Positions 1 through 12,179 of a DNA stretch of 12,179 nt are shown here, piece by piece. The stretch is from a virus. Every line of letters begins with the position of its first letter. Within the stretch, counting starts at the first letter, position 1. Position numbers and translations under genes: made by a program. The notes beneath the pieces were generated by a model. It ran no database searches, was not told where the DNA came from, and worked only from the letters and a program-made list of their open reading frames with translations. The stretch is taken from positions 1 to 12,179 of IMG/VR virus record IMGVR_UViG_3300033141_003953; one strand, written 5' to 3'.

Positions 1-114
1 TCATATTAATTTTTCTCCTGCATCTTTCTCAAGATTAGCTTTTAATAACACTAACCCTCTTTTCCAATCTTCTCCCTTTGCATGTTTTTGTTCTTGCTCT
101 AAATCTATAATTCT
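1..114. repeat. Left copy of exact 114-bp terminal direct repeat
   Basis: Bases 1-114 are identical base for base to 12066-12179 (checked by hand). The repeat lies inside the 3' part of the CDS at 1-225, which suggests a circular-assembly overlap or terminal redundancy rather than a dedicated non-coding terminus. Confidence 0.95.
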
Positions 115-225
115 CCTCTTAATAAATTCTTTTACATCTGTCATTAAAAAAATACCATTATCTAATTTTCCATGAGTATAAATGGGTCTGCTCATTCTCT
201 CACTCAAATTAAATTCTTTTTTCAT
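1..225 (-). CDS. Hypothetical protein, 74 aa
   Basis: ORF with ATG at 225 and TGA at 3-1. It starts 1 nt after the stop of the upstream gene (227), which implies coupled translation. No motif recognised. Confidence 0.55.
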   Translation of the reverse strand: MKKEFNLSERMSRPIYTHGKLDNGIFLMTDVKEFIKRRIIDLEQEQKHAKGEDWKRGLVLLKANLEKDAGEKLI

Positions 226-226
226 T

Positions 227-451
227 TTATTTTTTCTCTTCCAGCCATTTAGCTAATCTTTCAAAATAAGAAGCTGCGCTTTCATCTCTTTCAGCTTTAA
301 ATATTCTCTTAATTTTTCTAAAATCTTTAAGATACATTCTAATAACTATTGTCCCTTTACTTATACTTCCCCTGCTTGCTTGTTTAATGCCTTTATTCAT
401 GTTATAACTACGTATAACACCTTTATAAATGTTTCGTTTTTTAACAATCAC
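227..451 (-). CDS. Small basic protein, possible ribbon-helix-helix DNA binder, 74 aa
   Basis: Overlaps the upstream gene by 11 nt. A short beta-like strand (TIVIRMYL) is followed by two helices (KDFRKIKRIFKAE, SAASYFERLAKWLEE), a layout resembling Arc/CopG-type RHH proteins. The function is inference only. Confidence 0.5.
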   Translation of the reverse strand: MIVKKRNIYKGVIRSYNMNKGIKQASRGSISKGTIVIRMYLKDFRKIKRIFKAERDESAASYFERLAKWLEEKK

Positions 452-674
452 TATCAGGTAATAAACCTTTTCTGCCTCTTGTAGCTGGGGATATTAAATA
501 GGTGATATATCTGCAATAATCCCCCTCAACATTATAACATCTTTTTATATGGACATCTGTTGGTCTTAAAGTTACTCGGTGTTTTATACAATATACTGTA
601 TTTCCTTCTGCTTGTTCTACAAGATAGTTCCTTCTTCTTCTTATTCTTTTGATTTGTTTTTTTGTTTTTTTCAT
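441..674 (-). CDS. Very basic Cys/His protein, possible zinc-knuckle nucleic-acid binder, 77 aa
   Basis: The ORF track gives 441..746, but that start overlaps the fibre gene by 65 nt. The ATG at 674 lies 7 nt after the fibre stop (682-684) and gives MKKTKKQIKRIRRRR.... It contains C-x2-H-x9-H-x3-C (CIKH...HIKRC) plus one more Cys. Confidence 0.5.
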   Translation of the reverse strand: MKKTKKQIKRIRRRRNYLVEQAEGNTVYCIKHRVTLRPTDVHIKRCYNVEGDYCRYITYLISPATRGRKGLLPDSDC

Positions 675-681
675 TTTAATT

Positions 682-2229
682 TTAATGGAAGGCAGCCCAA
701 GTTGCTGGGCTTCCCCCTGAAGTGCAACCATAAAATTTATTATCAACTATGTTATATACAATTTCCCCTTCTGTTCCGTCAGTGTTGTTCATTCCTGCGT
801 CTGATACCTGTCTCGGTTTGAATCGTCCTGTGCAGGTGATAGTTTCTGTTGAAGAATTACATAAACTAACGTTTCCGTTTGCAGTAAAATCACCAGCAAG
901 AGTTAAACCTCCTGTTGAAGTGAAGTCTGTCCCTGCATTACCTATGTTTTTAATTCTGTAATTGTTCATATCTAAAGGTCTCCTAAAATCTATATCTCCC
1001 CCTGATTTTCTTGATATTAAAATAGGTGTGTCTATATGTGTTCCATTATCATTTTTTGCAAAAAGCCCAAAATTAGAACCTGCATCGCTTCCGCTTTCTG
1101 CACTATTATTTGCTCCCATTTCCCACCTTAAACTATCGTCTGTTGTCCAGCTTATAACTCTAAAAGTTCCAGCTTCATTTTTTAGTATGAATTTCCCGCC
1201 GTTTGTTGTTAAATCTCCTGTTGTTGTGTCACTTGCATCATTTTTTAAATAATCTGAATGTGCCTGATTATTGTTTGCAAGATGATTATCTATTTCCTGA
1301 TGTGTGTTTGTTCCTATGTTTTGAATTGCTGTATGGTCTATGTCTGTTGTTAAGTTATGAGTATTTGACAGAGAATTGTGATTTATCTCGCTGTCATTTG
1401 TTGAGATATTTGCTCCTGCTATTGTTATTCCTGTTCCTTCTGTTAATTCCTGCTGAAATCCTGTATGTCCTGCACTTGCATAATCTAAATTTGCTAAACT
1501 ATCATGCTGTCTTTGAAATGAAACTCCTCTGACTTCCACCCTTGTTCCTGTTGTTCCTTCCATATAAATATCTATGTTGGTAGCTACTGGGTGAGAATTG
1601 TTTGCATAAACCTTTACAACAATTCTGTCCCCACTGCTTAAAGGATATTCTTCGCTTACTGTAAGGTGGAAATTATGTTCTTCTTCTGTATTTCCTATAA
1701 AATCTGTTAATTCTGTTGTTCCTATTAATGTCTCACTTCCCCCATTATCTCTTACATAGAATTCTCCATAAAATTTTAATCTTCCTGCACTCCCAGCTTT
1801 TAGATGCGCGTGCATTTCATAAACTCCCCTTGTTAAAATTCTTATTAATGCATAAGCGTTATATGAACTTTCTGTTATAAATGAGCCTATTAGATAATTG
1901 TTTGTATTTCCCGGAACTGAATCACTTACAGTTTCTTTTGCTGTTCCATCAATATCTGGCTTCATTGTATAATAGCCTTCAATATCAGAATTTTCTTTAT
2001 ATCCAAATAAATCTATTCCTGTATTTACACTGACATTATCAACATATTCTTTATTTACAATATCCTTTGCACCAGAAATAGTTTGAGTTGTTCCCTGTTG
2101 CATATTTAAGGATTTGACAATATTGTAATCATCCATATTGTCAAAATTTCCTGCTCCTTCTGGTCTATGAAACTTATTTTTTTTGAAGCTTACACCTCTA
2201 AACATTGTCTTATATGGATTCTTTGCCAT
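682..2229 (-). CDS. Fibre / receptor-binding protein, 515 aa
   Basis: Largest ORF. It is Asn/Thr/Gly/Ser-rich and beta-rich. Residues ~240-330 carry repeated His-containing motifs of the kind common in phage tail fibres (HDSLANLDYASAGHTGF, HNSLSNTHNLTTDIDHTAIQNIGTNTHQEIDNHLANNNQAHSDYL). It has its own upstream intergenic region with a TATA-like box. Confidence 0.7.
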   Translation of the reverse strand: MAKNPYKTMFRGVSFKKNKFHRPEGAGNFDNMDDYNIVKSLNMQQGTTQTISGAKDIVNKEYVDNVSVNTGIDLFGYKENSDIEGYYTMKPDIDGTAKETVSDSVPGNTNNYLIGSFITESSYNAYALIRILTRGVYEMHAHLKAGSAGRLKFYGEFYVRDNGGSETLIGTTELTDFIGNTEEEHNFHLTVSEEYPLSSGDRIVVKVYANNSHPVATNIDIYMEGTTGTRVEVRGVSFQRQHDSLANLDYASAGHTGFQQELTEGTGITIAGANISTNDSEINHNSLSNTHNLTTDIDHTAIQNIGTNTHQEIDNHLANNNQAHSDYLKNDASDTTTGDLTTNGGKFILKNEAGTFRVISWTTDDSLRWEMGANNSAESGSDAGSNFGLFAKNDNGTHIDTPILISRKSGGDIDFRRPLDMNNYRIKNIGNAGTDFTSTGGLTLAGDFTANGNVSLCNSSTETITCTGRFKPRQVSDAGMNNTDGTEGEIVYNIVDNKFYGCTSGGSPATWAAFH

Positions 2230-2249
2230 AATAATAAATATATCTAATC

Positions 2250-2257
2250 TTTATAAA
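2250..2257 (-). promoter_or_regulatory. TATA-like octamer TTTATAAA, 20 nt upstream of the fibre ATG
   Basis: Lies in the 85-nt intergenic gap 2230-2314. The same octamer at almost the same spacing precedes the terminase gene. No Shine-Dalgarno lies between the box and the ATG. Confidence 0.35.
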
Positions 2258-2314
2258 TATTTGCAGACCCCTATAACTAAGCCCAATAAATTCAGAGATT
2301 AATTGTTATCAGAA

Positions 2315-2485
2315 TTACGCAGATGTCACAGTTTCAAATGCTGTTCCATTATGAAATACAATTTTTCCACCAGATAGAAATATAGCTCCTGAGATTGTCG
2401 GCTGTAATTTATTATTTGCTCCTGAAATAACCTGAGGCAAAATTAACTCACTTGGAGCGCATACATCACCAATAAGCTCCACCAT
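2315..2485 (-). CDS. Hypothetical small protein, 56 aa (MVELIGDVCAPSELILPQVISGANNKLQ...)
   Basis: Hand-translated ORF below the track cutoff. Its ATG overlaps the upstream stop (TAAATG), and GGGGGA lies ~8 nt upstream as a possible RBS. Confidence 0.5.
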   Translation of the reverse strand: MVELIGDVCAPSELILPQVISGANNKLQPTISGAIFLSGGKIVFHNGTAFETVTSA

Positions 2486-2659
2486 TTATTTTCCCCCTTT
2501 CTTTTTCTTTACTTCTTCTTTTTCTTTAGAATTCTCTAAAAAATATTCAACATCGTACATCTTGCCTGGGTCTTCTGCAATATCAGCAGGTAGATTTCCA
2601 TTTATATCTCTATGGTCCCACCACTTCTTTCCTCTTTGCATTTTTCCTTTGTGTGACAT
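2486..2659 (-). CDS. Hypothetical small charged protein, 57 aa (MSHKGKMQRGKKWWDHRDING...)
   Basis: Hand-translated ORF below the track cutoff. It starts 1 nt after the capsid gene stop and fills otherwise unexplained space in a gene-dense operon. Confidence 0.5.
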   Translation of the reverse strand: MSHKGKMQRGKKWWDHRDINGNLPADIAEDPGKMYDVEYFLENSKEKEEVKKKKGGK

Positions 2660-2660
2660 T

Positions 2661-3530
2661 TTAACTTTGTGTGTTAGTTATTACATAGATAGCTTTTGGG
2701 TCTGTAACTTGTAGATGACCTATTTCCCAGCTTCTAATTGTGAATTTAATTCCTTTATCTTCAATAACTGCAGATGTTAATCCTACTACAGATTTCCATG
2801 TTGCAGCTCTTTGTCCTATGATTATCATTGCTTCGTCGTCTTCAACTGAATTAGTTTTAATTATTGTTAATCCACAGATTTGTCCCACCTTTCCATTAGA
2901 AACAACATCAGCAGTTTTAAAACTTGGATTATTAATTACTTTAGAGTTCATCATTAGATTCCTGTAATCTTTTGGTGATAATAATAAATAACCATTTTCT
3001 TGCGCGTCGTAATTATGTTCATCCATCGCTTGTATTCCAGTTAAAATATCTCTTATTGGGTCTCTATCTGCTACTGTTGCGCTGTCCCATGTTGCAACTG
3101 CAGCTGCAGTTTGTATTCCTGTAGCTCCTGATAATCCTGAATAAATTTGGTCATCTACAGCTTTTGCAATCGCTCTTGCTACTCTTAAAATTGTTCTTGC
3201 CTGAACATCAATAGCATCTGTCAATCTGTCTTCCATAAAGACATGACCTTCTGCTGCATATTTTTCATTTCTTGCAGAATGTTTTGTCCAGCTTGGGTCT
3301 ACATGAGGGAATGCTGCGCCTCTTGGGACTCCTTTAATGTTTAACTGGTCTTTTGCTGTTAAGTCTTCTGGATTTTCCCTATAATATGTTTCTTCCCATG
3401 AACTTGAACTTTGAAGTAATAGAACTTGTTTTAGTTTATATTGCTGTAACGCAAACCCTTTTACAGCTTTTGAAACATTCTCAGCTCTGAGTTCATAATC
3501 GCCCATATTTAAATTTGTTCCTGCTCCCAT
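2661..3530 (-). CDS. Major capsid protein, HK97-fold-like, 289 aa
   Basis: Its position directly after the decoration-like gene (1-nt gap) and its size are typical. A long amphipathic helix, TDAIDVQARTILRVARAIAKAVDDQIYSGL, resembles the HK97 spine helix, and the C-terminal half is beta-rich. No N-terminal delta domain is present, consistent with a separate scaffold gene. Confidence 0.75.
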   Translation of the reverse strand: MGAGTNLNMGDYELRAENVSKAVKGFALQQYKLKQVLLLQSSSSWEETYYRENPEDLTAKDQLNIKGVPRGAAFPHVDPSWTKHSARNEKYAAEGHVFMEDRLTDAIDVQARTILRVARAIAKAVDDQIYSGLSGATGIQTAAAVATWDSATVADRDPIRDILTGIQAMDEHNYDAQENGYLLLSPKDYRNLMMNSKVINNPSFKTADVVSNGKVGQICGLTIIKTNSVEDDEAMIIIGQRAATWKSVVGLTSAVIEDKGIKFTIRSWEIGHLQVTDPKAIYVITNTQS

Positions 3531-3531
3531 T

Positions 3532-3957
3532 TTAACCTAATAATAATTGAACATTTATAACTTCATCTGCAGAACCGTCTTCTAATGCTCTGCCAAATAT
3601 TGCGCCTCCGCTTGCTGTTGGAATGTCTGGTATTGGCGCAACTGTATTTGCTCCACTAATCATTACAAAATCTCCTGCATTTACAGCATTTGTGCATTTT
3701 ATATCAAATATTCCTGTAGTGTAGCATGATATTGTTGTAGAACCATCGTTTGCTTCTTTATCAAAACACGCAACTCCTGCTCCCCTATTGACTATTGCTG
3801 CTCCCGGCGAACTATCGCTTGAATTTATTGCTGTTCTTGGGTCTTGCAATAATAATAAATTGCCCCCTGAGATATGTGTTCCGTCTGCAACAGTGTAAGT
3901 TATAGGGTTTCCACCGTCGGGACCCAAATCAACTGTATATGCTCCTGATAATACCAT
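3532..3957 (-). CDS. DUF2190-like head decoration / capsid cement protein, 141 aa
   Basis: Gly/Ala-rich beta protein immediately upstream of the capsid gene. The layout ...GAGVACFDKEANDGSTTISCYTTGIFDIK...AGDFVMISGANTV...IFGRALEDGSADEVINVQLL matches my recollection of the DUF2190 family consensus (GVA...GvF...Gd.V...iG.Ale...V.V.L). Confidence 0.6.
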   Translation of the reverse strand: MVLSGAYTVDLGPDGGNPITYTVADGTHISGGNLLLLQDPRTAINSSDSSPGAAIVNRGAGVACFDKEANDGSTTISCYTTGIFDIKCTNAVNAGDFVMISGANTVAPIPDIPTASGGAIFGRALEDGSADEVINVQLLLG

Positions 3958-3978
3958 AGCAAAATTAAAAACTTAAAC

Positions 3979-3986
3979 TATTTAAA
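3979..3986 (-). promoter_or_regulatory. TATA-like octamer TTTAAATA, 21 nt upstream of the decoration-gene ATG
   Basis: Read on the minus strand: AAGATTTAAATA + 21 nt + ATG. It overlaps the stop codon of the upstream gene. There is no Shine-Dalgarno. Confidence 0.35.
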
Positions 3987-4323
3987 TCTTTCGTTTATTT
4001 GGTATGCCAAATTTTTCTCTTAGTTCTCCCACAAAAGGATTAAACCTATTGTTAATTTCTGTTTCTATATCTTGGATTCTATATTTATACCATGCTCTTC
4101 CTAGAAGATAACAACCAATTCCATAAAAAATACCGAGAATGAGGGTTTTTTTCACATCTAAACTACTAATCCCAAATAATGCAATCATATATTTTAGATA
4201 TGATGTTAATCCCCATCCTCTATCAAAATAAGCTTTTGCGACTAAAGGTTTAAAAATCTTTCTTTTATCAATTTCATAACCCTTCTGTTCCATCTGGTAA
4301 ATTTTTATCTTCTTTAATTCCAA
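3982..4323 (-). CDS. Small membrane protein with two predicted TM helices, 113 aa
   Basis: Hydrophobic segments LTSYLKYMIALFGISSL and TLILGIFYGIGCYLLGRAW are followed by a charged C-terminus. The real start may be the internal Met at 4293 (MEQKGYEI...), which would cut the overlap with the upstream ORF from 50 to 20 nt. Confidence 0.6.
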   Translation of the reverse strand: MELKKIKIYQMEQKGYEIDKRKIFKPLVAKAYFDRGWGLTSYLKYMIALFGISSLDVKKTLILGIFYGIGCYLLGRAWYKYRIQDIETEINNRFNPFVGELREKFGIPNKRKI

Positions 4324-4765
4324 TTCCTATTTTTTCGACGTTGTTTAGATATAAAGGCAGTCTTTCTATACTTTCTCCGTCATATTTTGGAATTTTTTTT
4401 ATACCTAAAATTTTTCTTAAAATAGTTATGTATTTTTGATGTTTTTTATGTTGTGTTTTTCCTTGATTATTTTCCAATATTGACCTTAACATTAAGTCTT
4501 TATATTCTTTTGGAAAAACAATCTCCCACAGCTGAATTGGTCTGACTGCAACCTGAACCATAGTGTTCTCTCCTCTAAACTTAAACGGCAAATACTTTCC
4601 TCTAAGGTCATTAATAAACCTATCTACGTCGTGTTTTATTCCTCTTGTTATTAGATATAAGTGCATATTAGATGAACAACGGATTTTCTTGCGCATTCTA
4701 AAATCGCATCTTTTGTAAAATTTATATTTACTGATGCGTATTTTGTTCCGGTGGTGATAACCCAA
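4274..4765 (-). CDS. Hypothetical protein, 163 aa as drawn (start uncertain)
   Basis: As drawn, the long ORF overlaps 4651..4866 by 115 nt. Internal starts at 4696 (MRKKIR) or 4666 (MHLYLITRGIKHDV..., 130 aa) are more plausible. No motif recognised. Confidence 0.55.
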   Translation of the reverse strand: MGYHHRNKIRISKYKFYKRCDFRMRKKIRCSSNMHLYLITRGIKHDVDRFINDLRGKYLPFKFRGENTMVQVAVRPIQLWEIVFPKEYKDLMLRSILENNQGKTQHKKHQKYITILRKILGIKKIPKYDGESIERLPLYLNNVEKIGIGIKEDKNLPDGTEGL

Positions 4766-4866
4766 TTAACACCATAGGCAACCCCTAAAATGTATCCAAT
4801 TAAGAACGCAATAATATAACTTGCTATTTTTTCGATTCTTTTTCGGAATTTTCCTCTGCCGGACAT
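4651..4866 (-). CDS. Small membrane protein with one TM helix, 71 aa
   Basis: Basic N-terminus (MSGRGKFRKRIEK) followed by the hydrophobic helix IASYIIAFLIGYILGVAYGVNWVI. Confidence 0.5.
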   Translation of the reverse strand: MSGRGKFRKRIEKIASYIIAFLIGYILGVAYGVNWVITTGTKYASVNINFTKDAILECARKSVVHLICTYI

Positions 4867-4994
4867 TTTTCTAATGCTTGTTTAAATGATTTAAGAACAA
4901 TTTTATGTATTTCTATCCCTTTCTCCATTTTTTTTATTGTTTCCTCTGACGCTTTTATTTCTATTTCTATATCTTTTTTAGATAAAACCATCAT
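4824..4994 (-). CDS. Possible small charged helical protein, 56 aa (MMVLSKKDIEIEIKASEETIKKMEKG...)
   Basis: Hand-translated ORF that fills the 111-nt gap between 4978..5295 and 4651..4866. It overlaps the former by 17 nt and the latter by 43 nt, and ends TCG AAA AAA TAG. Confidence 0.3.
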   Translation of the reverse strand: MMVLSKKDIEIEIKASEETIKKMEKGIEIHKIVLKSFKQALEKCPAEENSEKESKK

Positions 4995-5295
4995 CTTTAA
5001 GTGGATTTGCTTCTCCTGTCATCACTTTTTTTGCATATTCTACATCACTTATAGGTTCTGGTTTTGGAGGTGTTTGTCCTGCTTCACTTTCTCCACCTAA
5101 ACTTTTCCTTGCTAAAATTTCTTCTTCTCTTTTAATTAATTCTTCTTTTTTTGTGTTTGCTTCTTCCAGCCTTTCAGCTGCTTCGTTTGCTCGTCTAATA
5201 ACCTCAATCTCTTCTGGCTTATTCCCATTATCATTTGATTCATCTGCATTCTTTTGTTTTTTTTCTTTCTGTTCTTTTTGCTCATTCATTTCCAT
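4978..5295 (-). CDS. Acidic coiled-coil protein, putative capsid scaffolding protein, 105 aa
   Basis: Extremely Glu/Lys-rich helical sequence (EEIEVIRRANEAAERLEEANTKKEELIKREEEILARK) in the head module. It is preceded by a strong Shine-Dalgarno. The functional call is inference from composition and position. Confidence 0.5.
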   Translation of the reverse strand: MEMNEQKEQKEKKQKNADESNDNGNKPEEIEVIRRANEAAERLEEANTKKEELIKREEEILARKSLGGESEAGQTPPKPEPISDVEYAKKVMTGEANPLKDDGFI

Positions 5296-5303
5296 TATGT
5301 TCT

Positions 5304-5311
5304 ACCTCCTT
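5304..5311 (-). promoter_or_regulatory. Shine-Dalgarno AAGGAGGT, 8 nt before the ATG at 5295
   Basis: Occupies the 16-nt gap after the stop at 5312-5314. The extended 12-mer TGAAAGGAGGTA is identical to the one before the OB-fold gene. Confidence 0.6.
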
Positions 5312-6223
5312 TCACATTCTTTCGAGAATTTGCTTCTCCATTTCTATATTTCTTAATACTGAGTTTCCTGTAGTTTCCATTAAAAACCATAAAGGATATA
5401 ATAAAGGATTTGAAATTGTCGCAGCTCTCAGTGTCCATCTTGCTGCATTTACATCTGAAACCGCAGAGTCTAATTCTGCTAATGCTTCTCCTTGTGATAT
5501 ATTTCCAAACCTTACTTGTGAGGAAATATCTCTCGTATTCATGCTTGCCAGTGTTAATAAATTGTCTCCTGCAAACCATGCTGTTAATATTGTTCCTGTT
5601 TGATGAGCTGCTAATAATGCTTTATGTGATTTTGCAAATGCGAAGCCTGCTTTTAATGCAGATTTTAATCCAAACCTGTTCATATTGCTTACTGTTGCCT
5701 GTGCTTTGATTAATGTTCCTTTTCCCACTTGTGTTCCCATAAATCTTACTCCTGCGGCTTTACCTGCTCCACCTAATAATCTTCCTGCTAATAATGTTCC
5801 TCCTGCAACTGCCCCTGCAAAAGCTGCTGTTCCTAAAACATCTCCTGCTGTTATTCTTCCGCCCCACCATGCTCTTGCCTGCTCTCTTTGCTCTGGAGTT
5901 CCTACACCTGCAGCGCTTAATCCCTTTACTGCTAATTTTCCACCTAATTTAAATGCTGAACTTACTAATGGTATTTTTTTGCCGATTTCTCCGACTTTTT
6001 CAATAAACCCTGTTTTCTTTTCTGCCGGTTTTTTTAAAGGCTTTTCTTCTTTTTTTTCTACTTTTTCTAAAAGACCCCCTCTTGCTAATGCCTCAGTCCT
6101 TCTTTTTGTTTTAATTTTTTTTAATTCTTTTTCCAAATTTTGTCTTTTAAGAGGCTTAGAGCCAAGTTTTTCCTTTACTTCTTCAAATCTTTTTTTTCGT
6201 TTTCCAAAAAGCCATAATGCCAT
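5312..6223 (-). CDS. Hypothetical protein, 303 aa: Lys-rich N-terminus, Gly/Ala-rich hydrophobic core
   Basis: Long ORF between portal and scaffold. The first ~80 residues are highly basic/charged. The core includes GTAAFAGAVAGGTLLAGRLLGGAGKAAG. No catalytic motif recognised. Confidence 0.65.
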   Translation of the reverse strand: MALWLFGKRKKRFEEVKEKLGSKPLKRQNLEKELKKIKTKRRTEALARGGLLEKVEKKEEKPLKKPAEKKTGFIEKVGEIGKKIPLVSSAFKLGGKLAVKGLSAAGVGTPEQREQARAWWGGRITAGDVLGTAAFAGAVAGGTLLAGRLLGGAGKAAGVRFMGTQVGKGTLIKAQATVSNMNRFGLKSALKAGFAFAKSHKALLAAHQTGTILTAWFAGDNLLTLASMNTRDISSQVRFGNISQGEALAELDSAVSDVNAARWTLRAATISNPLLYPLWFLMETTGNSVLRNIEMEKQILERM

Positions 6224-6231
6224 TTTTTATT

Positions 6232-6399
6232 TTATTTTATCTTCGGTGTTGGAATTGTTATGCCTATTGCTCCTGCAATAACAGCTATAACAGTTGTCAG
6301 TATAATACCATCTATTCCTTTAGATAATGCGAACATTTCTAAAGCTGTTATGCAAAATATTCCAGTGCATACAATCCTCCAATCTATTTTTTTCTTCAT
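6232..6399 (-). CDS. Small membrane protein, 55 aa (MKKKIDWRIVCTGIFCITALEMFALSKGIDGIILTTVIAVIAGAIGITIPTPKIK)
   Basis: Hand-translated ORF below the track cutoff. It starts 2 nt after the portal stop (6402-6404) and has two hydrophobic segments. Confidence 0.55.
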   Translation of the reverse strand: MKKKIDWRIVCTGIFCITALEMFALSKGIDGIILTTVIAVIAGAIGITIPTPKIK

Positions 6400-6401
6400 C
6401 A

Positions 6402-7496
6402 TTATTGTCCGCTTCCTGCGGTGGTTTCGTTTGGTTGAATATTAATTGGTTCATCCTTTGCTTTATCTGATAATAAATCGTTTTCTAAACTTGCTGGAAA
6501 TTCAAGCTCAATTTTTAATCCTAATTGCTCCCAGACCTGCTCTTCAACAAATAACTGCTCTTCTTCTATTGTCTGCTGAAATGCTAAATATGCAATTTTT
6601 GCTGTTGCTTCTGTAAATTCTGATGAACTTCCTACTATGATTTGAGGCACTCCTGTCGCCTGAAAGAAATAATTTTTTAATGCTTCAATCCATGGCAGAG
6701 GGTTTAAAGTTGCATTTGTCGGCACAGAAAGTAATTCATGCTCTACTGTCCCTTTTGGGACAAAAATATTCTCTGCGTTTTCTACTGCTTTGTCTGCTTT
6801 TGTTTTAAATGCTGCTATTTCTGCAGTATCGTCGGTATCTAAATGCCAGACAATTCTTGGCACGACATTTCTATGCATTAATTTTTTCATATCAGACATC
6901 GCTTCATTTCTCATTAAAATTATTGTTTCTAATGCTTCAATCATAGATTGCCCATGAATTTCATCTGCCACTCTGTTTCTTGCTAAGTGGAATATATTCT
7001 CTGGATTAAATTTTTTGTTTGGAGATTTTACTTTTGATTTTTGTTCATATCTTTTTATTCTTCCTTGCCTATCTACTACGATTATTATTACTCCGGGGTC
7101 TAATGGTTTAAGATTTAATATGTCCCCCTCATCATTTCTGATTATTTCACAAAAAGCGTCTCCGCCTATATTGTAGGTTCTTATCATATTTTCTATGATT
7201 GTGTTAAATGTATCTTTTCCCCAGCCTGTTATGAAATTTAGGGTTGCTTCTGTTTCTGAGTCTGCTTTAAATCCTTTTCCTACTGTCCATGTTGCTTTTG
7301 CGTCAATAACAGCCTTTAATTCTGGGATTGTTCTGTAATATCCTAAATATTTAGTCCAGTTTGTATTTTCCCATGTTGTTTCATCCTGCTCTGCTGGTCC
7401 ATCTGTTGTTGATACATCTACAGAAAAGTCGCTGACTACTCCTGACATATTTCCGTAGTCTGCTGAACTTATTTTTGTTTCGGGCATTTTAAACAT
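6402..7496 (-). CDS. Portal protein, 364 aa
   Basis: Size, position near the terminase, and sequence blocks resemble HK97-family portals as I recall them (NIGGDAFCEIIRNDEGDILNLKPLDP, FHLARNRVADEIHGQSMIEAL, ATGVPQIIVG...EATAKIAYLAFQQTIEEEQ). The start overlaps the upstream gene by 8 nt. Confidence 0.75.
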   Translation of the reverse strand: MFKMPETKISSADYGNMSGVVSDFSVDVSTTDGPAEQDETTWENTNWTKYLGYYRTIPELKAVIDAKATWTVGKGFKADSETEATLNFITGWGKDTFNTIIENMIRTYNIGGDAFCEIIRNDEGDILNLKPLDPGVIIIVVDRQGRIKRYEQKSKVKSPNKKFNPENIFHLARNRVADEIHGQSMIEALETIILMRNEAMSDMKKLMHRNVVPRIVWHLDTDDTAEIAAFKTKADKAVENAENIFVPKGTVEHELLSVPTNATLNPLPWIEALKNYFFQATGVPQIIVGSSSEFTEATAKIAYLAFQQTIEEEQLFVEEQVWEQLGLKIELEFPASLENDLLSDKAKDEPINIQPNETTAGSGQ

Positions 7497-8352
7497 CTAT
7501 TACAAATGGAACATGGAAAGTTAGTGTTGTCGGTTGTCCATCTTCAATTATTTGAGCAAAGTTAGTCCCTCCTGTATAAGCCCCTGAAATAAATCTATCA
7601 TTTCTATTTGCTGGGTCGTGTGCTATTCCAGCTGAAAATATTTCTGATGGTGCTGTATTTTTAAACCATGCCTCTATAGTAAATCTTAAGATTTCTCCCT
7701 TTTTAAAATGTTGCACTTCTGATAGATTTATTTTAATTAAGGCTGTGTGGCTTTGCAGCTTCCACCAGTCCATATTCATTGCATGAAAATAAACTGATTG
7801 TCCGCTTCCTAATTCTGTTTCTGTTGTTCCATCGTAGTGTTTAGCTGTGACTGTTACATAAAAAGTCACATCTGCCTCATTATTTTCCAGATTTTGAACT
7901 CCTACTGGGACATTTATTATTAAATCTCCTTTGATGTTTTTTGGTGTGTTGAATGTTATATCAAAATCTTCATCTACTAATTTTGTAAAAGAGTTTGCAA
8001 TATCTCCACTTGCAATACCTGATTTTAACCACTCAGAGTAAATTGTTGGCACTGTTGTTACTAATGTCGCTCCACTTGTTCCTCTTGCTCCATAATAAAC
8101 ATCATATCCTACGCCATTCGCTATATCAAAATAATCATAGTTTATTAATTGTTTTCCCGGAGCAAATAATGGCTCTACAGGTCTAATACTTAATTTTTTT
8201 TTAGGAATTTCAGCGGGTTCTGGTTCTGAGAATTCAGCTGGCGGTAGGATTATTGGTGGCGGTTCTAATTTCTTTTTTTTAATTTCGTGCGGGTCTTCTT
8301 CTTCCAGTTCTGGTTCTCTTGCAAATAAATTTGTTCCAAAATTTAAAGCCAT
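7489..8352 (-). CDS. Hypothetical structural-looking protein, 287 aa
   Basis: An acidic, Pro-rich N-terminal linker (EPPPIILPPAEFSEPEPAEIPKKK) is followed by a beta-rich domain. Coupled to its neighbours by 8- and 10-nt overlaps. Confidence 0.6.
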   Translation of the reverse strand: MALNFGTNLFAREPELEEEDPHEIKKKKLEPPPIILPPAEFSEPEPAEIPKKKLSIRPVEPLFAPGKQLINYDYFDIANGVGYDVYYGARGTSGATLVTTVPTIYSEWLKSGIASGDIANSFTKLVDEDFDITFNTPKNIKGDLIINVPVGVQNLENNEADVTFYVTVTAKHYDGTTETELGSGQSVYFHAMNMDWWKLQSHTALIKINLSEVQHFKKGEILRFTIEAWFKNTAPSEIFSAGIAHDPANRNDRFISGAYTGGTNFAQIIEDGQPTTLTFHVPFVIDV

Positions 8353-8789
8353 CTTTTTATTGATAATTCTTTATTTAAATCAGGCAGTTTTCCCTGATTT
8401 CTTTCTGAAAATAAAACTGCATGACCTATATTTAATAATTCTTCATTTATGTTTATTCCCTGATGAATAATTTCTCCTAATATTCTTCCTCTCCTTCCTA
8501 CTCTTTGTTTATCTGGAATAATTTCAACTTTCGCTCCTGACAACCTCTTTTCCAGCCAGTTTCTTGCTTCTTTCCCCCCTTTTTCATTCATTTCTGGAGC
8601 CTGAATTTTTGACAGTCTTATTGGAAAATCAAAATCTCTCTCACTCCATCTTACTCTTATTGTATCTCCATCTATAATTTTTACTACTTCTGCCTGAAAA
8701 TTTTCTGTTATCTGCTTGTGCGGGCTGTCAAAATAATAAATCTGCATTTGGCTGTTTGTTAATTCAGGAAATTTGTTAAAATCATGCAT
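8343..8789 (-). CDS. Staphylococcal-nuclease (thermonuclease, SNase) homologue, 148 aa
   Basis: Aligns by eye to S. aureus nuclease: IDGDT = IDGDT; IRLSKIQAPE vs FRLLLVDTPE; KQRVGRRGRILGEI vs DKYGRGLAYIY; NEELLNIGHA vs NEALVRQGLA. Confidence 0.8.
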   Translation of the reverse strand: MHDFNKFPELTNSQMQIYYFDSPHKQITENFQAEVVKIIDGDTIRVRWSERDFDFPIRLSKIQAPEMNEKGGKEARNWLEKRLSGAKVEIIPDKQRVGRRGRILGEIIHQGININEELLNIGHAVLFSERNQGKLPDLNKELSIKRWL

Positions 8790-9168
8790 CGTCTATAAAA
8801 TCTGTTTGTTTTTTGTCTTTGAGTAATGATAACCCTCTTAATGCTCCGTCTCTTAATACAGTTATCATACTTTCGGCTTCTGCTCTGCTTGTATATCCAG
8901 ACATATCATAGTTAATGCAGTAAATTGCTGCTAAATTGCTGGCAATTTCACTTAATATGTGTTTTACATCTTCGTTTAATGTTGTATATGTGTCGCTGTA
9001 ATTTACTCTTGTCATAGTGTTTATGAATGCTTCTGCTTCATTAATCCACTGAGTTATTAATTCGTCTGGTGTCTGACCGTAGATTGTAGTTCCACCTGTT
9101 AGATTAGAATTTACGTTGCTTCCTGCTTTTACTAAAACAGCTCCGCTTGTTGTCATTATTGCTGCCAT
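8782..9168 (-). CDS. Possible head-tail adaptor (gp6-like connector), 128 aa
   Basis: A helical segment, PDELITQWINEAEAFINTMTRVNY, resembles the conserved N-terminal helix pair of gp6-like connector proteins. It lies directly downstream of the terminase. Function is low-confidence. Confidence 0.45.
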   Translation of the reverse strand: MAAIMTTSGAVLVKAGSNVNSNLTGGTTIYGQTPDELITQWINEAEAFINTMTRVNYSDTYTTLNEDVKHILSEIASNLAAIYCINYDMSGYTSRAEAESMITVLRDGALRGLSLLKDKKQTDFIDDA

Positions 9169-9175
9169 GATTTTT

Positions 9176-10447
9176 TTATGTTATCCATATATTTAAATGT
9201 TTGTCTTTTACACACCAGACAGCTCTTATAAGTGCTTCTGCAATATGTGTATAATTTCCAAAAATTTTTAATTTTCCGTCTTCAGTATATTCATATTGAA
9301 CTGATTTTAAACTATGAAAAATTTCCTCTCTGTTTAAAAAGCTAACTTTTTCTCTTTCCATAAGATTCAACAAATTATTGTATAAATCTTCTTTTAATAA
9401 TTTTTTCCGCCTTTTTTCTTCATTATCTAAACTTCTTCTGGAATTATTAATTGCTTCTACTTTTCTTTTTGTTTGTGGATGGTCCAGCAAACTATCAAAT
9501 ACTCCTACTCCTAATCCTCCATCATCAATATATATTCTTTTATAATTGTTTTTTTTATCTAAAGCAATAATTTCAGTTGTTATTTGGGTTAAAAGCATTT
9601 TAGTGAAAATTTGGCAGTCAAACATAATTAATTCGCCATTTCTTTTTCGTTCAACAGAACAAAAAACTGTTTCATCTCCGCCCATTCTTGCTATATCTAC
9701 TCCTAAAAATTTTTTATAATTTGGAGTATAGTTTTCAGGTGCTATCATTCTTTCTTTTATTAAGTTATCAGGAAAGAATTGTCTTAGTTCATCAACAAAT
9801 TCCCCAAGATATTCCTGTGCGAATTGTAATTTTGTCATCCTTTTCTTTTCTCTTTCTATATTTTCCATCATTCTTTCTTTCATATTTTTTGGTCTTATTT
9901 TTGCTACTTCTGGCGTAGATATGTGAAATTTTTTATAATTTTTATCCTGAAATGATTCATAGAAATAACCCTGTCTGCCAAATGGTGTGCTTAACAGCCA
10001 TATATCCCCACCTGTTGTTGCAAGCATAGGAGTTATTGCTGCCCAAACATCTTCGGGTATAAAGGCGGCTTCATCTACAATCAATAAATCTATTGTGTAT
10101 CCTCTTATTCCGTAACCTGATTCTCCGACTGGCAGGCAGTAAATTGTTGAATTGTTTTTTAATTGTAGTTTGTGTTTTGTTGGTCTGTCTTTTCCAGTTT
10201 TAATAATTTTTTTATCTTTATTATGGATATAGGACAATATTTTTTCAAAAAGAAGTTGTGCTTGTCTTTCAACTTTTGCAACCACCATAATTGTTTTTTC
10301 TGAATTTTTTATTGCGTATTCTCCTGCTTTCATAGAGATTATTGTAGATTTCCCGACTTGTCTCCCAGACCTTAAAGCGATATTTCCATTAGAATTTAAA
10401 ATTTCTTTTTGCCATTTGTCGAGTTTGAAATTAAATATGTTTTTCAT
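9176..10447 (-). CDS. terL: Terminase large subunit, 423 aa
   Basis: Walker A RSGRQVGKST; Walker B IDLLIVDEAAF; coupling motif LSTP; RNase-H-like nuclease acidic motifs LGVDIARMGGDETV and IYIDDGGLGVGV. Confidence 0.9.
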   Translation of the reverse strand: MKNIFNFKLDKWQKEILNSNGNIALRSGRQVGKSTIISMKAGEYAIKNSEKTIMVVAKVERQAQLLFEKILSYIHNKDKKIIKTGKDRPTKHKLQLKNNSTIYCLPVGESGYGIRGYTIDLLIVDEAAFIPEDVWAAITPMLATTGGDIWLLSTPFGRQGYFYESFQDKNYKKFHISTPEVAKIRPKNMKERMMENIEREKKRMTKLQFAQEYLGEFVDELRQFFPDNLIKERMIAPENYTPNYKKFLGVDIARMGGDETVFCSVERKRNGELIMFDCQIFTKMLLTQITTEIIALDKKNNYKRIYIDDGGLGVGVFDSLLDHPQTKRKVEAINNSRRSLDNEEKRRKKLLKEDLYNNLLNLMEREKVSFLNREEIFHSLKSVQYEYTEDGKLKIFGNYTHIAEALIRAVWCVKDKHLNIWIT

Positions 10448-10468
10448 AGTTTAGTGTTGTTTAGTAAG

Positions 10469-10476
10469 TTTATAAA
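10469..10476 (-). promoter_or_regulatory. TATA-like octamer TTTATAAA preceded by an A-run, 21 nt upstream of the terL ATG
   Basis: Read on the minus strand: ACAAAAAAATTTTATAAA + 21 nt + ATG. There is no Shine-Dalgarno. Confidence 0.4.
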
Positions 10477-10547
10477 ATTTTTTGTGGAGTTCTGAGTTAT
10501 ACAAAACACAGGAACGAACAATAATCGCTAATAACAATACACAAACA

Positions 10548-10573
10548 AGCGAGCGAGCGAAGCGAGCGAGCGA
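10548..10573. repeat. Tandem duplication of AGCGAGCGAGCGA
   Basis: The 13-mer occurs at 10548-10560 and again at 10561-10573. It is followed by the self-complementary GCGCGC-ACGAG-GCGCGC at 10576-10592. Confidence 0.9.
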
Positions 10574-10600
10574 TGGCGCGCACGAGGCGCGCAACACGGA

Positions 10601-10705
10601 ATGTAATGCGCGAACGTAGTGAGCGCGTATTGTTTTATGTAATGCGCGAACGTCTTTAGTAAATGTAATTTCGTGAGCGTGTATTGTTTTATGTAATCTG
10701 AACGT
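10601..10705. repeat. Iteron-like direct repeat array
   Basis: ATGTAAT occurs at 10601, 10637, 10663 and 10691. The 17-mer ATGTAATGCGCGAACGT is exact at 10601-10617 and 10637-10653. The 25-mer GTGAGCG(C/T)GTATTGTTTTATGTAAT occurs at 10619-10643 and 10673-10697 with one mismatch. Confidence 0.85.
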
Positions 10706-10793
10706 AGCGAAAGACTTATAATGTTTCGTTTGTTTCACTATACGCGGACGAAACTTTATATGTCTTTCTCTACGTGAGTATTTGTTTCACGTC

Positions 10794-10893
10794 GCATTAC
10801 AAAACATAAATTTTAAATACTTGGAACGCTTAGAATTTGCAAAGCAAATTCTAAGTTAATAATAGTGGAAAGTTTTAGGTTGTTTTGTAATGC
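10794..10893. repeat. Nested inverted repeats: 13-bp arms flanking a perfect 12-bp-stem hairpin
   Basis: GCATTACAAAACA (10794-10806) is the exact reverse complement of TGTTTTGTAATGC (10881-10893). Between them, CTTAGAATTTGC-AAA-GCAAATTCTAAG (10829-10855) forms a perfect hairpin. Confidence 0.9.
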
Positions 10894-10940
10894 AAAGAAA
10901 TTAGAAACATTTAAATAGTATGTTTTCTTGTCTCTCTTAT

Positions 10941-11066
10941 ATGCGCTTCGATACGAGTAAGTTTCTCGTCTATCAAAAGCCAGTGACAGAAGGCATAGCA
11001 GGGACGGTTCGTAACTATACTTCTTCACTGACTTTTTACGTAAAACGTTCTATACTTACTCTCTGA
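10941..11066 (+). CDS. Speculative 41-aa micro-ORF (MRFDTSKFLVYQKPVTEGIAGTVRNYTSSLTFYVKRSILTL)
   Basis: The ATG lies 23 nt downstream of a plus-strand TTTAAATA (10910-10917), and the ORF ends 17 nt before the 11084 ORF. No other support. Confidence 0.2.
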   Translation: MRFDTSKFLVYQKPVTEGIAGTVRNYTSSLTFYVKRSILTL

Positions 11067-11083
11067 AAAACACAGACAGAGAA

Positions 11084-11296
11084 ATGAAATACATAGAAAT
11101 AAAACAAATTGTGAAACTTCTAAACGGCAAGGACATTAAAATAGAAGGTGAAACTTTTTCTCTTAAATCTATGGCAGGATGGTATAAACTTAAAAGGAGA
11201 CATCACTGCATTTTAGAAGAAGGTGAGCAATTAGAAGAAGTGAAAGAAAAAGAAAGAATAGAAATGAATAAAAAATTAAATTTCTCCAGCCTTTAA
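11084..11296 (+). CDS. Hypothetical protein, 70 aa; the only plus-strand ORF of at least 60 aa that I accept
   Basis: ORF diverging from the non-coding region. Its 3' end overlaps the convergent minus-strand gene by 21 nt. No motif recognised. Confidence 0.45.
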   Translation: MKYIEIKQIVKLLNGKDIKIEGETFSLKSMAGWYKLKRRHHCILEEGEQLEEVKEKERIEMNKKLNFSSL

Positions 11297-11461
11297 CAAC
11301 ATTTCAAATATTTCCCTGCCTTTTTGTTCAGTTGAGTTTCTTTGATAAGCAAATTGTGCAAATAGTTTCTTTTTATCTATTTCCTTTCCTTCTTCCTGCA
11401 CCTTTCTGCATATCTGCTTCATCCACTCAACATTTTCTCTTCTTGATTTTGTTGTTCCCAT
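11276..11461 (-). CDS. Small protein, possible winged-helix/HTH DNA binder, 61 aa
   Basis: Short helical protein (KLFAQFAYQRNSTEQKGREIFEMLLKAGEI) typical in size and pattern of small viral wHTH regulators. Inference only. Confidence 0.45.
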   Translation of the reverse strand: MGTTKSRRENVEWMKQICRKVQEEGKEIDKKKLFAQFAYQRNSTEQKGREIFEMLLKAGEI

Positions 11462-11524
11462 TTTCTTAATTTAAACAGGGGGTATGGACGCATTTGAATA
11501 ATCCCCCCCTGTGAATATACAATT

Positions 11525-11944
11525 TCAATTAAAAGCTTCCTGTGCCTGCTTTACAACTTTGATAGATTCTGCCATTATTTTCTCATTACTTTCATCTAAA
11601 TCGAATAATCCTCTTATTACTGTAAATATTTCAGTTGCCAGCCCAACAGGGTCTTTAGGATATGTTTTCGCTTCAATAGAGCCATTCTGAGCCACTTTCT
11701 TTACTTCTTCAATATCATTACCCTCTATTTTCTCCATTTCTTTCATATCGAAGTATCCATCTTCGTTTATCTCTCCCTTTATCAATACTGCATCACCCGG
11801 CTTGTGATTTGTTGCGTGTTTTTTATCAAATGTAGAATAATTTTTCCCATTAACAATAAAAACCCATCTTGTGTATGGCTTTCCGTTTTTGCCGACTCCT
11901 GAACTCATATCAACTTTTTCAATAATTCCTTTTATTGTTTCCAT
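11525..11944 (-). CDS. OB-fold-like protein, possible ssDNA-binding protein, 139 aa
   Basis: The N-terminal ~70 residues have a beta-rich pattern (GKNGKPYTRWVFIVNGKNYSTFDKK...PGDAVLIKGEI) resembling small OB-fold SSBs, with an acidic/helical C-terminal tail. Preceded by a strong Shine-Dalgarno. Confidence 0.5.
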   Translation of the reverse strand: METIKGIIEKVDMSSGVGKNGKPYTRWVFIVNGKNYSTFDKKHATNHKPGDAVLIKGEINEDGYFDMKEMEKIEGNDIEEVKKVAQNGSIEAKTYPKDPVGLATEIFTVIRGLFDLDESNEKIMAESIKVVKQAQEAFN

Positions 11945-12065
11945 GTTTACCTCCTTTCATTTTCATTCGAATATTACAAAGGGGCTACTCGGAATTACGC
12001 TTTTATGAAGAGTAATGTAGACTACATTTTAGAACATCTTAGCAACCACTTCGCCCCTTTGACTA
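11945..12065. promoter_or_regulatory. Intergenic control region with nested palindromes
   Basis: CAAAGGGGC (11977-11985) pairs with GCCCCTTTG (12053-12061). A central palindrome, AATGTAG-A-CTACATT, lies at 12014-12028. Confidence 0.45.
11949..11956 (-). promoter_or_regulatory. Shine-Dalgarno AAGGAGGT, 4 nt before the ATG at 11944
   Basis: Read on the minus strand: TGAAAGGAGGTAAAC ATG. The 12-mer is the same as at 5303-5314. Confidence 0.6.
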
Positions 12066-12179
12066 TCATATTAATTTTTCTCCTGCATCTTTCTCAAGAT
12101 TAGCTTTTAATAACACTAACCCTCTTTTCCAATCTTCTCCCTTTGCATGTTTTTGTTCTTGCTCTAAATCTATAATTCT
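12066..12179. repeat. Right copy of exact 114-bp terminal direct repeat (re-presents the 3' end of the CDS at 1-225)
   Basis: Identical to 1-114. Confidence 0.95.

Follow-up and report, generated by a model that had tools for sequence, protein, structure and literature searches.

Genome organization of the virus and its relatives

The DNA analyzed here, positions 1–12,179 of IMG/VR record IMGVR_UViG_3300033141_003953 (hereafter the window, meaning this whole 12,179-nt stretch), carries the same 114 bp at both of its ends (1–114 and 12066–12179). With this exact direct overlap, the window represents a full genome with a circular map, ~12.07 kb in size (~12,065 bp). Among the relatives, many show comparable end overlaps of 99–127 bp, the mark of circular assemblies, at lengths of 11–13 kb, which would presumably place the group among the smallest tailed viruses. 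The genome encodes a T4-type terminase large subunit (9176–10447, − strand), together with portal, HK97-fold capsid, cement, SNase-domain, and fiber proteins, and all of the convincing genes lie on the − strand. No replication protein, Rep, integrase, recombinase, or telomerase was detected among the ORFs of the window, and a small terminase subunit is not recognizable. The SNase homolog, which the earlier note on this DNA had put forward for nicking or binding assays, is a gene of the virion module, and no link between it and the nested-repeat site described below was detected.

Using the terminase as an anchor, we fetched 170 related loci; the scans reported here were counted over 172 loci. 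Terminase relatives in metagenomes exceed 2900, and very many of them reside on contigs of 11–13 kb. Our literature searches found no description of this family of ~12-kb tailed viruses, and a search for similar DNA among phage records returned no match. When viral contigs were scanned with the DNA pattern of the inner palindrome described below, the matches were mainly unrelated AT-rich repeats of giant viruses. Bins that hold relatives are labeled Nanoarchaeota, "uncultured archaeon," Saccharibacteria, and Levyibacteriota, so that binning does not decide the host.

Two concentric inverted repeats upstream of the terminase gene

The only long noncoding region of the genome (10448–11083) lies directly upstream of the terminase gene, and it contains two inverted repeats placed one inside the other. 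The outer repeat consists of two 13-bp arms, at 10794–10806 (GCATTACAAAACA) and 10881–10893 (TGTTTTGTAATGC), which are complementary at 13 of 13 positions and separated by 74 nt. The inner repeat is a palindrome spanning 10829–10855, in which a 5′ arm (10829–10840, CTTAGAATTTGC) and a 3′ arm (10844–10855, GCAAATTCTAAG), complementary at 12 of 12 positions, enclose a three-base loop, AAA on the + strand (10841–10843). The coordinates that the earlier note had given for these arms and for the hairpin were reproduced exactly, both from the sequence and with a repeat finder. The dyad axes of the two repeats are offset by 1.5 nt, and the 74-bp spacer between the outer arms has a G+C content of 26%, compared with 34% for the genome.

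Dinucleotide shuffles of the window gave a hairpin with a stem of at least 12 and a loop of at most 8 in 5 of 300 cases, and an inverted repeat with arms of at least 13 within 120 nt in 11 of 300. Computing the folding energies of both strands, as had been proposed as a check, gave values far better than those of shuffled sequences: −21.6 kcal/mol for the + strand folded as DNA (z = −5.8), and −35.6 and −30.4 kcal/mol for the + and − strands folded as RNA (z = −6.9 and −6.2, respectively). The inner stem does not have the makeup of an intrinsic terminator, with only 4 of its 12 pairs being G-C and no T run following the stem on either strand.

The nested architecture is conserved and its stems covary

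We scanned the 172 loci blind for a perfect outer repeat (arms of at least 10 bp, gap of 30–120 nt) surrounding a concentric perfect hairpin (stem of at least 8 bp). This architecture was found in 26 instances, representing about 13 distinct, unrelated sequences, and ten block-wise dinucleotide shuffles of the same loci yielded 0–1 instance each. The shuffles of the window and the block shuffles of the related loci together rule out a chance origin of the nested repeats, which are real, strongly nonrandom, and conserved. All 26 instances lie 0.3–1.2 kb upstream of the terminase gene. Once imperfect pairing is allowed, the outer arms prove to be general: in 17 of 22 elements, the best symmetric 10-mer pairs at 9–10 of 10 positions, whereas chimeric controls average 7.0. 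The arms share a loose family consensus, ACTTTCA[CG].

The closest relatives with a complete noncoding region are L005–L007, whose terminase is 68% identical to that of the window. At the same relative place, L005 carries the unit TTACATTACAAAC ... TAGAATTTGT-gaa-ACAAATTCTA ... GTTTGTAATGTAA, and the palindrome is the best-conserved noncoding block between L005 and the window. Where these two differ, pairing is kept: the C-G pair that closes the loop in the window is T-A in L005, and the outer arms carry two further two-sided changes. L070 and L143 are distinguished by a single double change, from G-C to A-T. Across 19 center-anchored elements, the pairs at stem positions 3–9 are Watson-Crick in 100% of cases and include as many as four types at a given position, and pairing reaches background beyond position 13. 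These pair counts were taken on center-anchored sequences; a MAFFT alignment lost the register of the dyads. The earlier note had named a lack of conservation, or of compensating changes, in related genomes as grounds for abandoning the feature, and the opposite was found: the element is kept, and its stems change on both sides together.

Other aspects of the element vary among relatives. The hairpin loops differ in both sequence and length (0–5 nt), and the distance from TAGAA to TTCTA in the inner dyad ranges from 9 to 13 bp, so that the fixed half-site spacing predicted for a rigid dimeric operator is not found. The variable core between TAGAA and TTCTA is nevertheless always perfectly complementary. 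A single protein motif shared by the outer and inner arms was rejected, since the arms are no more similar within an element than across elements, with the exception of L060. A rolling-circle or hairpin-primed origin is likewise unsupported, given that no ORF encodes an HUH Rep or nickase, that the loops are unconserved, and that the assemblies are circular.

With the element placed upstream of the terminase gene in the window, one could imagine a packaging site (pac or cos) that is recognized or cleaved by the adjacent terminase, its symmetric sites flanking the cut. The lack of a recognizable small terminase subunit would suit such a site, as would the many noncircular contigs of relatives that end within the noncoding region. 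In the relatives, however, the element stands 0.3–1.2 kb away from the terminase with other genes in between, and at least 13 contigs assemble as circles across the region. Furthermore, the full-length contigs of relatives that have no end overlap tend to break in the GC-rich repeats of the noncoding region (described below) and not at the palindrome, and a packaging site would leave the promoter geometry of the element unexplained. We consider a packaging role extremely unlikely. Physical genome ends at the palindrome were likewise rejected, on the grounds of the circular assemblies and the breaks in the GC-rich repeats.

A TATA box at a fixed distance from the inner dyad

In archaea, the TATA box is centered ~26 nt upstream of the transcription start, and leaderless mRNAs are common. 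Of 1441 gene starts across the virus family, ~180 are preceded by a TATA-like 8-mer (TTTAWATA and variants) that begins, in a very sharp peak, 29 nt (±1) ahead of the ATG, a pattern that, in light of established knowledge of archaeal transcription, points to archaeal-type promoters and to an archaeal host. In the window, the genes for the terminase, adaptor, fiber, cement, and 287-aa proteins (− strand; starts, in descending order, at 10447, 9168, 8352, 3957, and 2229) have such boxes, which begin 27–29 nt upstream of the ATG, and a Shine-Dalgarno sequence is absent there. For the genes starting at 5295, 11944, and 2485, a strong site of the GGAGG type is found in place of such a box. The box of the terminase gene, TTTATAAA (10469–10476, − strand), begins 29 nt upstream of the ATG at 10447, a distance that would make the terminase mRNA leaderless.

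The nested unit contains a box of the same motif class as these gene promoters, TTTAAATA at 10812–10819 on the + strand, whose first base is 17 nt ahead of the inner stem and 29 nt ahead of the loop. From this likeness, we infer that the motif is used as a promoter in the window. The transcription start is predicted at ~10841 on the + strand (TATA start + 29), which is the first base of the hairpin loop and coincides with a pyrimidine-purine step, C10840/A10841. In the related loci, the distance from the start of the TATA box to the center of the hairpin peaks sharply at 28–32 nt, with 8–11 cases per bin over a background of ~1, and 42 of the 172 loci have such a promoter-centered palindrome, 26 different stems being represented among them. 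A dyad thus centered overlaps the promoter and predicted start in 26 distinct relatives, as is expected of an operator. The key feature of the element, which the earlier note had overlooked, is this archaeal TATA box (10812–10819) at a family-wide fixed distance from the dyad.

Further motifs accompany the box in relatives, where a BRE-like AAAGC or AAGC is located just upstream of the TATA box and CTT/AGAA is conserved at TATA +17 to +24. The 5′ arm of the inner palindrome in the window includes this family-conserved CTTAGAA, and the sequence upstream of its TATA box, ACATAAAT, is A-rich and without the G/C of the BRE-like AAAGC.

Strong predicted folds (z about −6 to −7) and covarying stems would also fit a structured RNA, and a transcript reading through the unit would fold into an outer stem, internal loops, and an apical stem-loop. 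The window has a TATA-like box at 10755 (+ strand), 39 nt upstream of the left arm, which is a candidate source of such a transcript with a start near 10784, and three G-U pairs make the + strand fold of the window 5 kcal/mol better. The preference for one strand is, however, inconsistent among 13 elements, with eight folding better on one strand and five on the other, and the stems are perfect Watson-Crick helices that lack the G-U pairing usual in RNA. Rfam searches of the window and 15 relatives gave no match in the region, no promoter occurs at a consistent position ahead of the left arm in relatives, and the motif conserved inside the element is the promoter's own TATA box. A structured RNA therefore seems to us very unlikely. 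The RNA made from the promoter itself would lack the hairpin, because a start in the loop leaves out the 5′ arm; a loop start, the absence of a strand bias, and the absence of an Rfam match would together mean that the pairing takes place in DNA, as a hairpin or a cruciform.

Orientation of the predicted promoter

The TATA box of the nested unit in the window points away from the terminase operon, unlike that of all other relatives. Two of them, L005 and L024, have a TATA box on each side of the palindrome, and the remaining relatives have one toward the operon only. The order of the surrounding region is unchanged despite the flipped promoter, and four independent assemblies of the window virus are identical over the palindrome region. 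The samples JGI 3300033148, 3300033149, and 3300033153 contain this same virus. The reversed orientation resembles the outcome of an old inversion, or of losing one box from a symmetric pair, more than it resembles a visible switch.

Another reading is an invertible element, in which recombination between the 13-bp arms would flip the 74-bp promoter segment and so switch the direction of transcription. Inverted repeats do flank a promoter here, and the promoter of the window is indeed opposite to those of all other relatives within an otherwise preserved order. Against this, the genome contains no recombinase gene, the four independent assemblies share one orientation, only one of ~24 elements is flipped, and the central palindrome would be left unexplained. 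On balance, we find it hardly credible that the unit is an inverton.

A second long palindrome, of 74 bp, is located at 10702–10775, where the repeat finder reports 28-nt arms that are 89% complementary. It has two outward-facing TATA-like boxes, at 10722 (− strand) and at 10755 (+ strand, the box mentioned above), with predicted starts at ~10693 on the − strand and ~10784 on the + strand. The leftward box may supply the transcript in the terminase direction, as the palindrome promoter does in relatives. An Rfam match of this second palindrome to mir-2831 is at chance level.

Downstream of the + strand promoter lies a 70-aa ORF (ORF70; 11084–11296, + strand), which is the sole + strand ORF and is a JGI gene call in three other assemblies; the segment 10750–11250 shows a + strand composition skew. 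We rejected ORF70 as a conserved gene served by the promoter, as it has no homolog in the 170 related loci, and its status as a gene is uncertain. That the TATA box of the window faces away from the operon, and that the only ORF downstream of it is without homologs, count against the promoter reading.

Iterons and a possible replication origin

Between the nested unit and the terminase gene, the noncoding region is divided into several blocks. The iteron block (10597–10705, + strand) contains four direct copies of ATGTAAT(GCGCGAACGT), at 10601, 10637, 10663, and 10691, and a second repeat, GTGAGCG[CT]GTATTGTTTT, at 10619 and 10673. The outer arms of the nested unit belong to the same series: read as its reverse complement and together with its flanks, the left arm reproduces the iteron core TGTTTTGTAATGCG, and the right arm is a copy oriented as the four upstream iterons are. 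The earlier note was thus right to call the arms variants of the upstream iteron motif: TGTAAT is invariant in all six copies, TGTTTT(A)TGTAATGCG is common to four of them, and five copies point one way while the sixth is inverted. In relatives, the outer arms are mostly not repeated as iterons, and this amplification is specific to the window virus.

Closer to the terminase gene is a GC-rich block (10547–10596), in which AAGCGAGCGAGCG occurs twice (10547–10572) and a GC hairpin is formed by 10576–10581 and 10587–10592. Similar GCTCGCT-type repeats and long C-runs are present in the otherwise AT-rich genomes of relatives (L002, 1471–1690; L036, 2206–2270; L039, 2228–2345), always downstream of the promoter palindrome. 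Neither an Rfam match nor an excess of GNRA or UUCG tetraloops was found in these GC-rich repeats, and a structured RNA in this part was rejected on the tetraloop result. Next comes a T/G-rich tract containing the motif GCGATTATTG(T), at 10518–10528 in the window (− strand, GCGATTATTGT), ~2385–2397 in L039, and ~1697–1706 in L002; the motif is kept between distant relatives at a matching relative place in the noncoding region. The order toward the terminase is conserved, running from the promoter palindrome through the GC-rich repeats, the TG-rich tract with GCGATTATTGT, and an AT-rich part to the first gene.

The iteron-like arms raise the alternative of an origin core, in which the inverted arms, as extra iteron copies, would be initiator sites flanking a 74-bp AT-rich unwinding region, and the central palindrome with its embedded promoter would aid opening or priming. 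Several observations fit this picture. The arms match the iteron core, one of the six copies being inverted relative to the other five; the spacer is richer in A+T than the genome, as noted above; and the inverted sites around an AT-rich segment, together with the four direct iterons nearby (10601–10705), follow the ORB-DUE-ORB arrangement. As the genome has no recognizable replication protein, host factors must be recruited. ORB and mini-ORB sequences of Pyrococcus have conserved TTCC and GAA and an inverted arrangement (PMC1904270). Compared with that source, mini-ORB-like dyads of relatives (TTCCACTGGAAA, TTCCATAGGAAAT) match both the sequences and the inverted arrangement (L039, 2473–2545; L036, 2433–2547 and 2666–2678; L067, 200–213). 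L039 has the mini-ORB-like GTTCCACTGGAAATGTAGGT twice in the same noncoding region, TTCCATAGGAAAT arms in L036 flank an 89-bp AT-rich stretch, L067 has another such dyad, and the family outer-arm consensus ACTTTCA[CG] itself resembles half a mini-ORB. On their sequence, the dyads of L036, L039, and L067 are candidate Orc1/Cdc6-type origins.

Other observations speak against an origin at the nested unit. The arms of the window (GCATTACAAAACA) and its iterons are without the TTCC/GAA core that defines ORBs, and a scan for TTCCANTGGAAA with at most one mismatch gave no match in the noncoding region of the window, although matches are present in some relatives. Where ORB-like repeats do occur (L036 and L039), they are at the opposite end of the noncoding region, apart from the promoter-type palindrome. 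Moreover, the iteron amplification is confined to the window virus, and an origin would not require so sharply fixed a distance from the TATA box to the dyad center. Strand composition skew is uninformative on the origin, because all genes are on one strand. We regard an origin core as rather unlikely for the nested unit, if clearly less so than the alternatives weighed above; a transcription switch and an origin may also coexist in one control region.

A proposed promoter inside two concentric dyads

The best reading of the 100-bp unit is as the conserved first control element of the long noncoding region in this family of ~12-kb tailed viruses. More specifically, we favor, with roughly even confidence, a transcription switch, namely, a regulated promoter with its operator. 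The TATA box at 10812–10819 (+ strand) would direct initiation ~29 nt downstream, in the 3-nt loop of the 27-bp palindrome, and the 13-bp outer arms would bracket this promoter at about −48 and at +40 to +52. The two dyads would then switch the promoter by either of two routes. In the first, symmetric small DNA-binding proteins, probably virus-encoded, would occupy the dyads, and the same protein could also bind the four adjoining direct iterons, as in iteron replicons. In the second, the perfectly complementary arms would pair intrastrand in underwound DNA. By either route, TBP, TFB, and RNA polymerase would be kept from reaching the start site.

Two features of the dyads bear on the choice between these routes. 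The outer and inner arms differ in motif, except in L060, and one protein may thus not explain both dyads. In addition, the variable spacing between TAGAA and TTCTA, combined with a core that is always complementary, suggests that intrastrand pairing is itself under selection. In its strongest form, the second route would amount to a structure-dependent promoter in a globally distributed clade of ~12-kb archaeal tailed viruses, a promoter whose BRE/TATA-directed start lies in the loop of a nested hairpin or cruciform and whose extrusion, in underwound DNA or during replication, switches transcription and perhaps primes or opens an origin. We think this strong form unlikely; if true, it would couple transcription and replication in a virus that encodes no replication protein.

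Of the functions that the earlier note had offered for the nested repeats, the evidence favors the operator-like dyad, a control site acting at the level of DNA that may belong to an origin, and it lends no support to the rolling-circle or hairpin-primed origin or to the stand-alone RNA.

Very little is known about the control of transcription and the start of replication in archaeal viruses, especially in uncultivated ones with minimal genomes that lack replication genes. The nested units provide a sharply delimited, testable sequence rule for the whole family, in which a TATA box is followed after 17–19 nt by a covarying palindrome centered on the predicted start, all between matching arms. 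Such a rule could help to find regulators, to locate the origin, and to assign viruses of this kind to archaeal hosts from sequence alone. If the pairing of the arms, rather than the symmetry of a protein, is what is selected, then this would be a rare DNA-structure-dependent promoter in archaea.

Comparison with known control regions

Repression in archaea usually works through a symmetric protein that occupies a site covering the start, on the downstream side of the TATA box. Archaeal repressors such as those of the TrmB, NrpR, Phr, and MDR1 types have operators of this kind, placed after BRE/TATA. The nested unit shares with these operators, and with early regulatory sequences of archaeal viruses (PMC11065993), a dyad between the TATA box and the start. 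Early promoters of archaeal viruses combine a strong BRE/TATA core with virus-specific flanking repeats that are bound by viral repressors (PMC11065993), and the unit resembles them in its core and its virus-specific flanks, with small virus-encoded binders being likely here as well. In contrast to the archaeal repressor operators, the dyad here is a long perfect palindrome (2 × 8–13 bp) centered on the predicted start, its half-site spacing is variable, and a second, concentric pair of arms is present, 63–103 bp apart.

The archaeal oriC (PMC1904270) is similar in that inverted 13-bp sites flank an AT-rich segment of 60–100 bp, with direct copies nearby, in the main intergenic control region. 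It differs from the window in that the arms here are without the TTCC...GAA core and no orc1/cdc6 gene is adjacent, and a promoter and a perfect palindrome occupy what would be the unwinding element.

Among iteron replicons with autoregulated initiators (F RepE, pPS10 RepA, and R6K π), the inverted halves are adjacent to each other. The window resembles these replicons in having direct iterons next to which two partial copies, inverted relative to each other, overlap a promoter, whereas its arms are 74 bp apart, no Rep-like protein is encoded, and the feature is specific to the window virus. In SV40, a 27-bp palindrome lies next to an AT/TATA tract and is bound by the initiator helicase of the virus itself. 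The likeness to this polyomavirus core origin extends to a perfect 27-bp palindrome just downstream of TATA, to transcription starts in or near the palindrome, and to the joining of origin and promoter in one control region; SV40 is, however, a eukaryotic virus with no homology to the window virus. Geminiviruses and other CRESS-DNA viruses, as well as rolling-circle plasmid origins, also gather a hairpin, iterons, and promoters in one intergenic region, but these systems need an HUH Rep and a conserved loop nick, and here no Rep is found and the loops vary (0–5 nt).

Candidate binding proteins and additional observations

Among the small proteins of the virus, for which Pfam, PHROGs, and PDB sequence searches were uninformative, a 61-aa protein encoded beside the control region (11276–11461, − strand; 59% identity in L005) is a candidate DNA-binding protein on the basis of its predicted structure. 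Its model is confident (pLDDT 89) and comprises three helices in an HTH-like fold, and Foldseek gave only weak matches, to winged-helix/HTH DNA-binding domains (E > 0.6). A homolog search with this protein recovered only itself. The structure model of a second candidate, of 74 aa, is of low confidence.

Several further features of these genomes are recorded here as separate observations. In L037, genes for tRNA-Ser(GCT) and tRNA-Ile(TAT) lie at 1575–1751 (− strand), on the opposite strand and just upstream of its promoter palindrome. The terminase/adaptor junction of the window (9160–9240, − strand) has a weak match to the RNA family RAGATH-12 (36.6 bits, E = 1.8e-4; gathering score, 75). A perfect 14-bp inverted repeat, AAATAAATCTATCA, is situated inside the gene for the 287-aa protein, with its arms at 7587–7600 and 7720–7733, 119 nt apart. 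This gene (7489–8352) occupies the slot between the SNase gene and the portal gene, where L102, a 67%-TerL relative, instead carries a 358-aa β-helix, pectinesterase-like protein (2523–3599). The replacement suggests that the slot holds a receptor-binding or depolymerase module.
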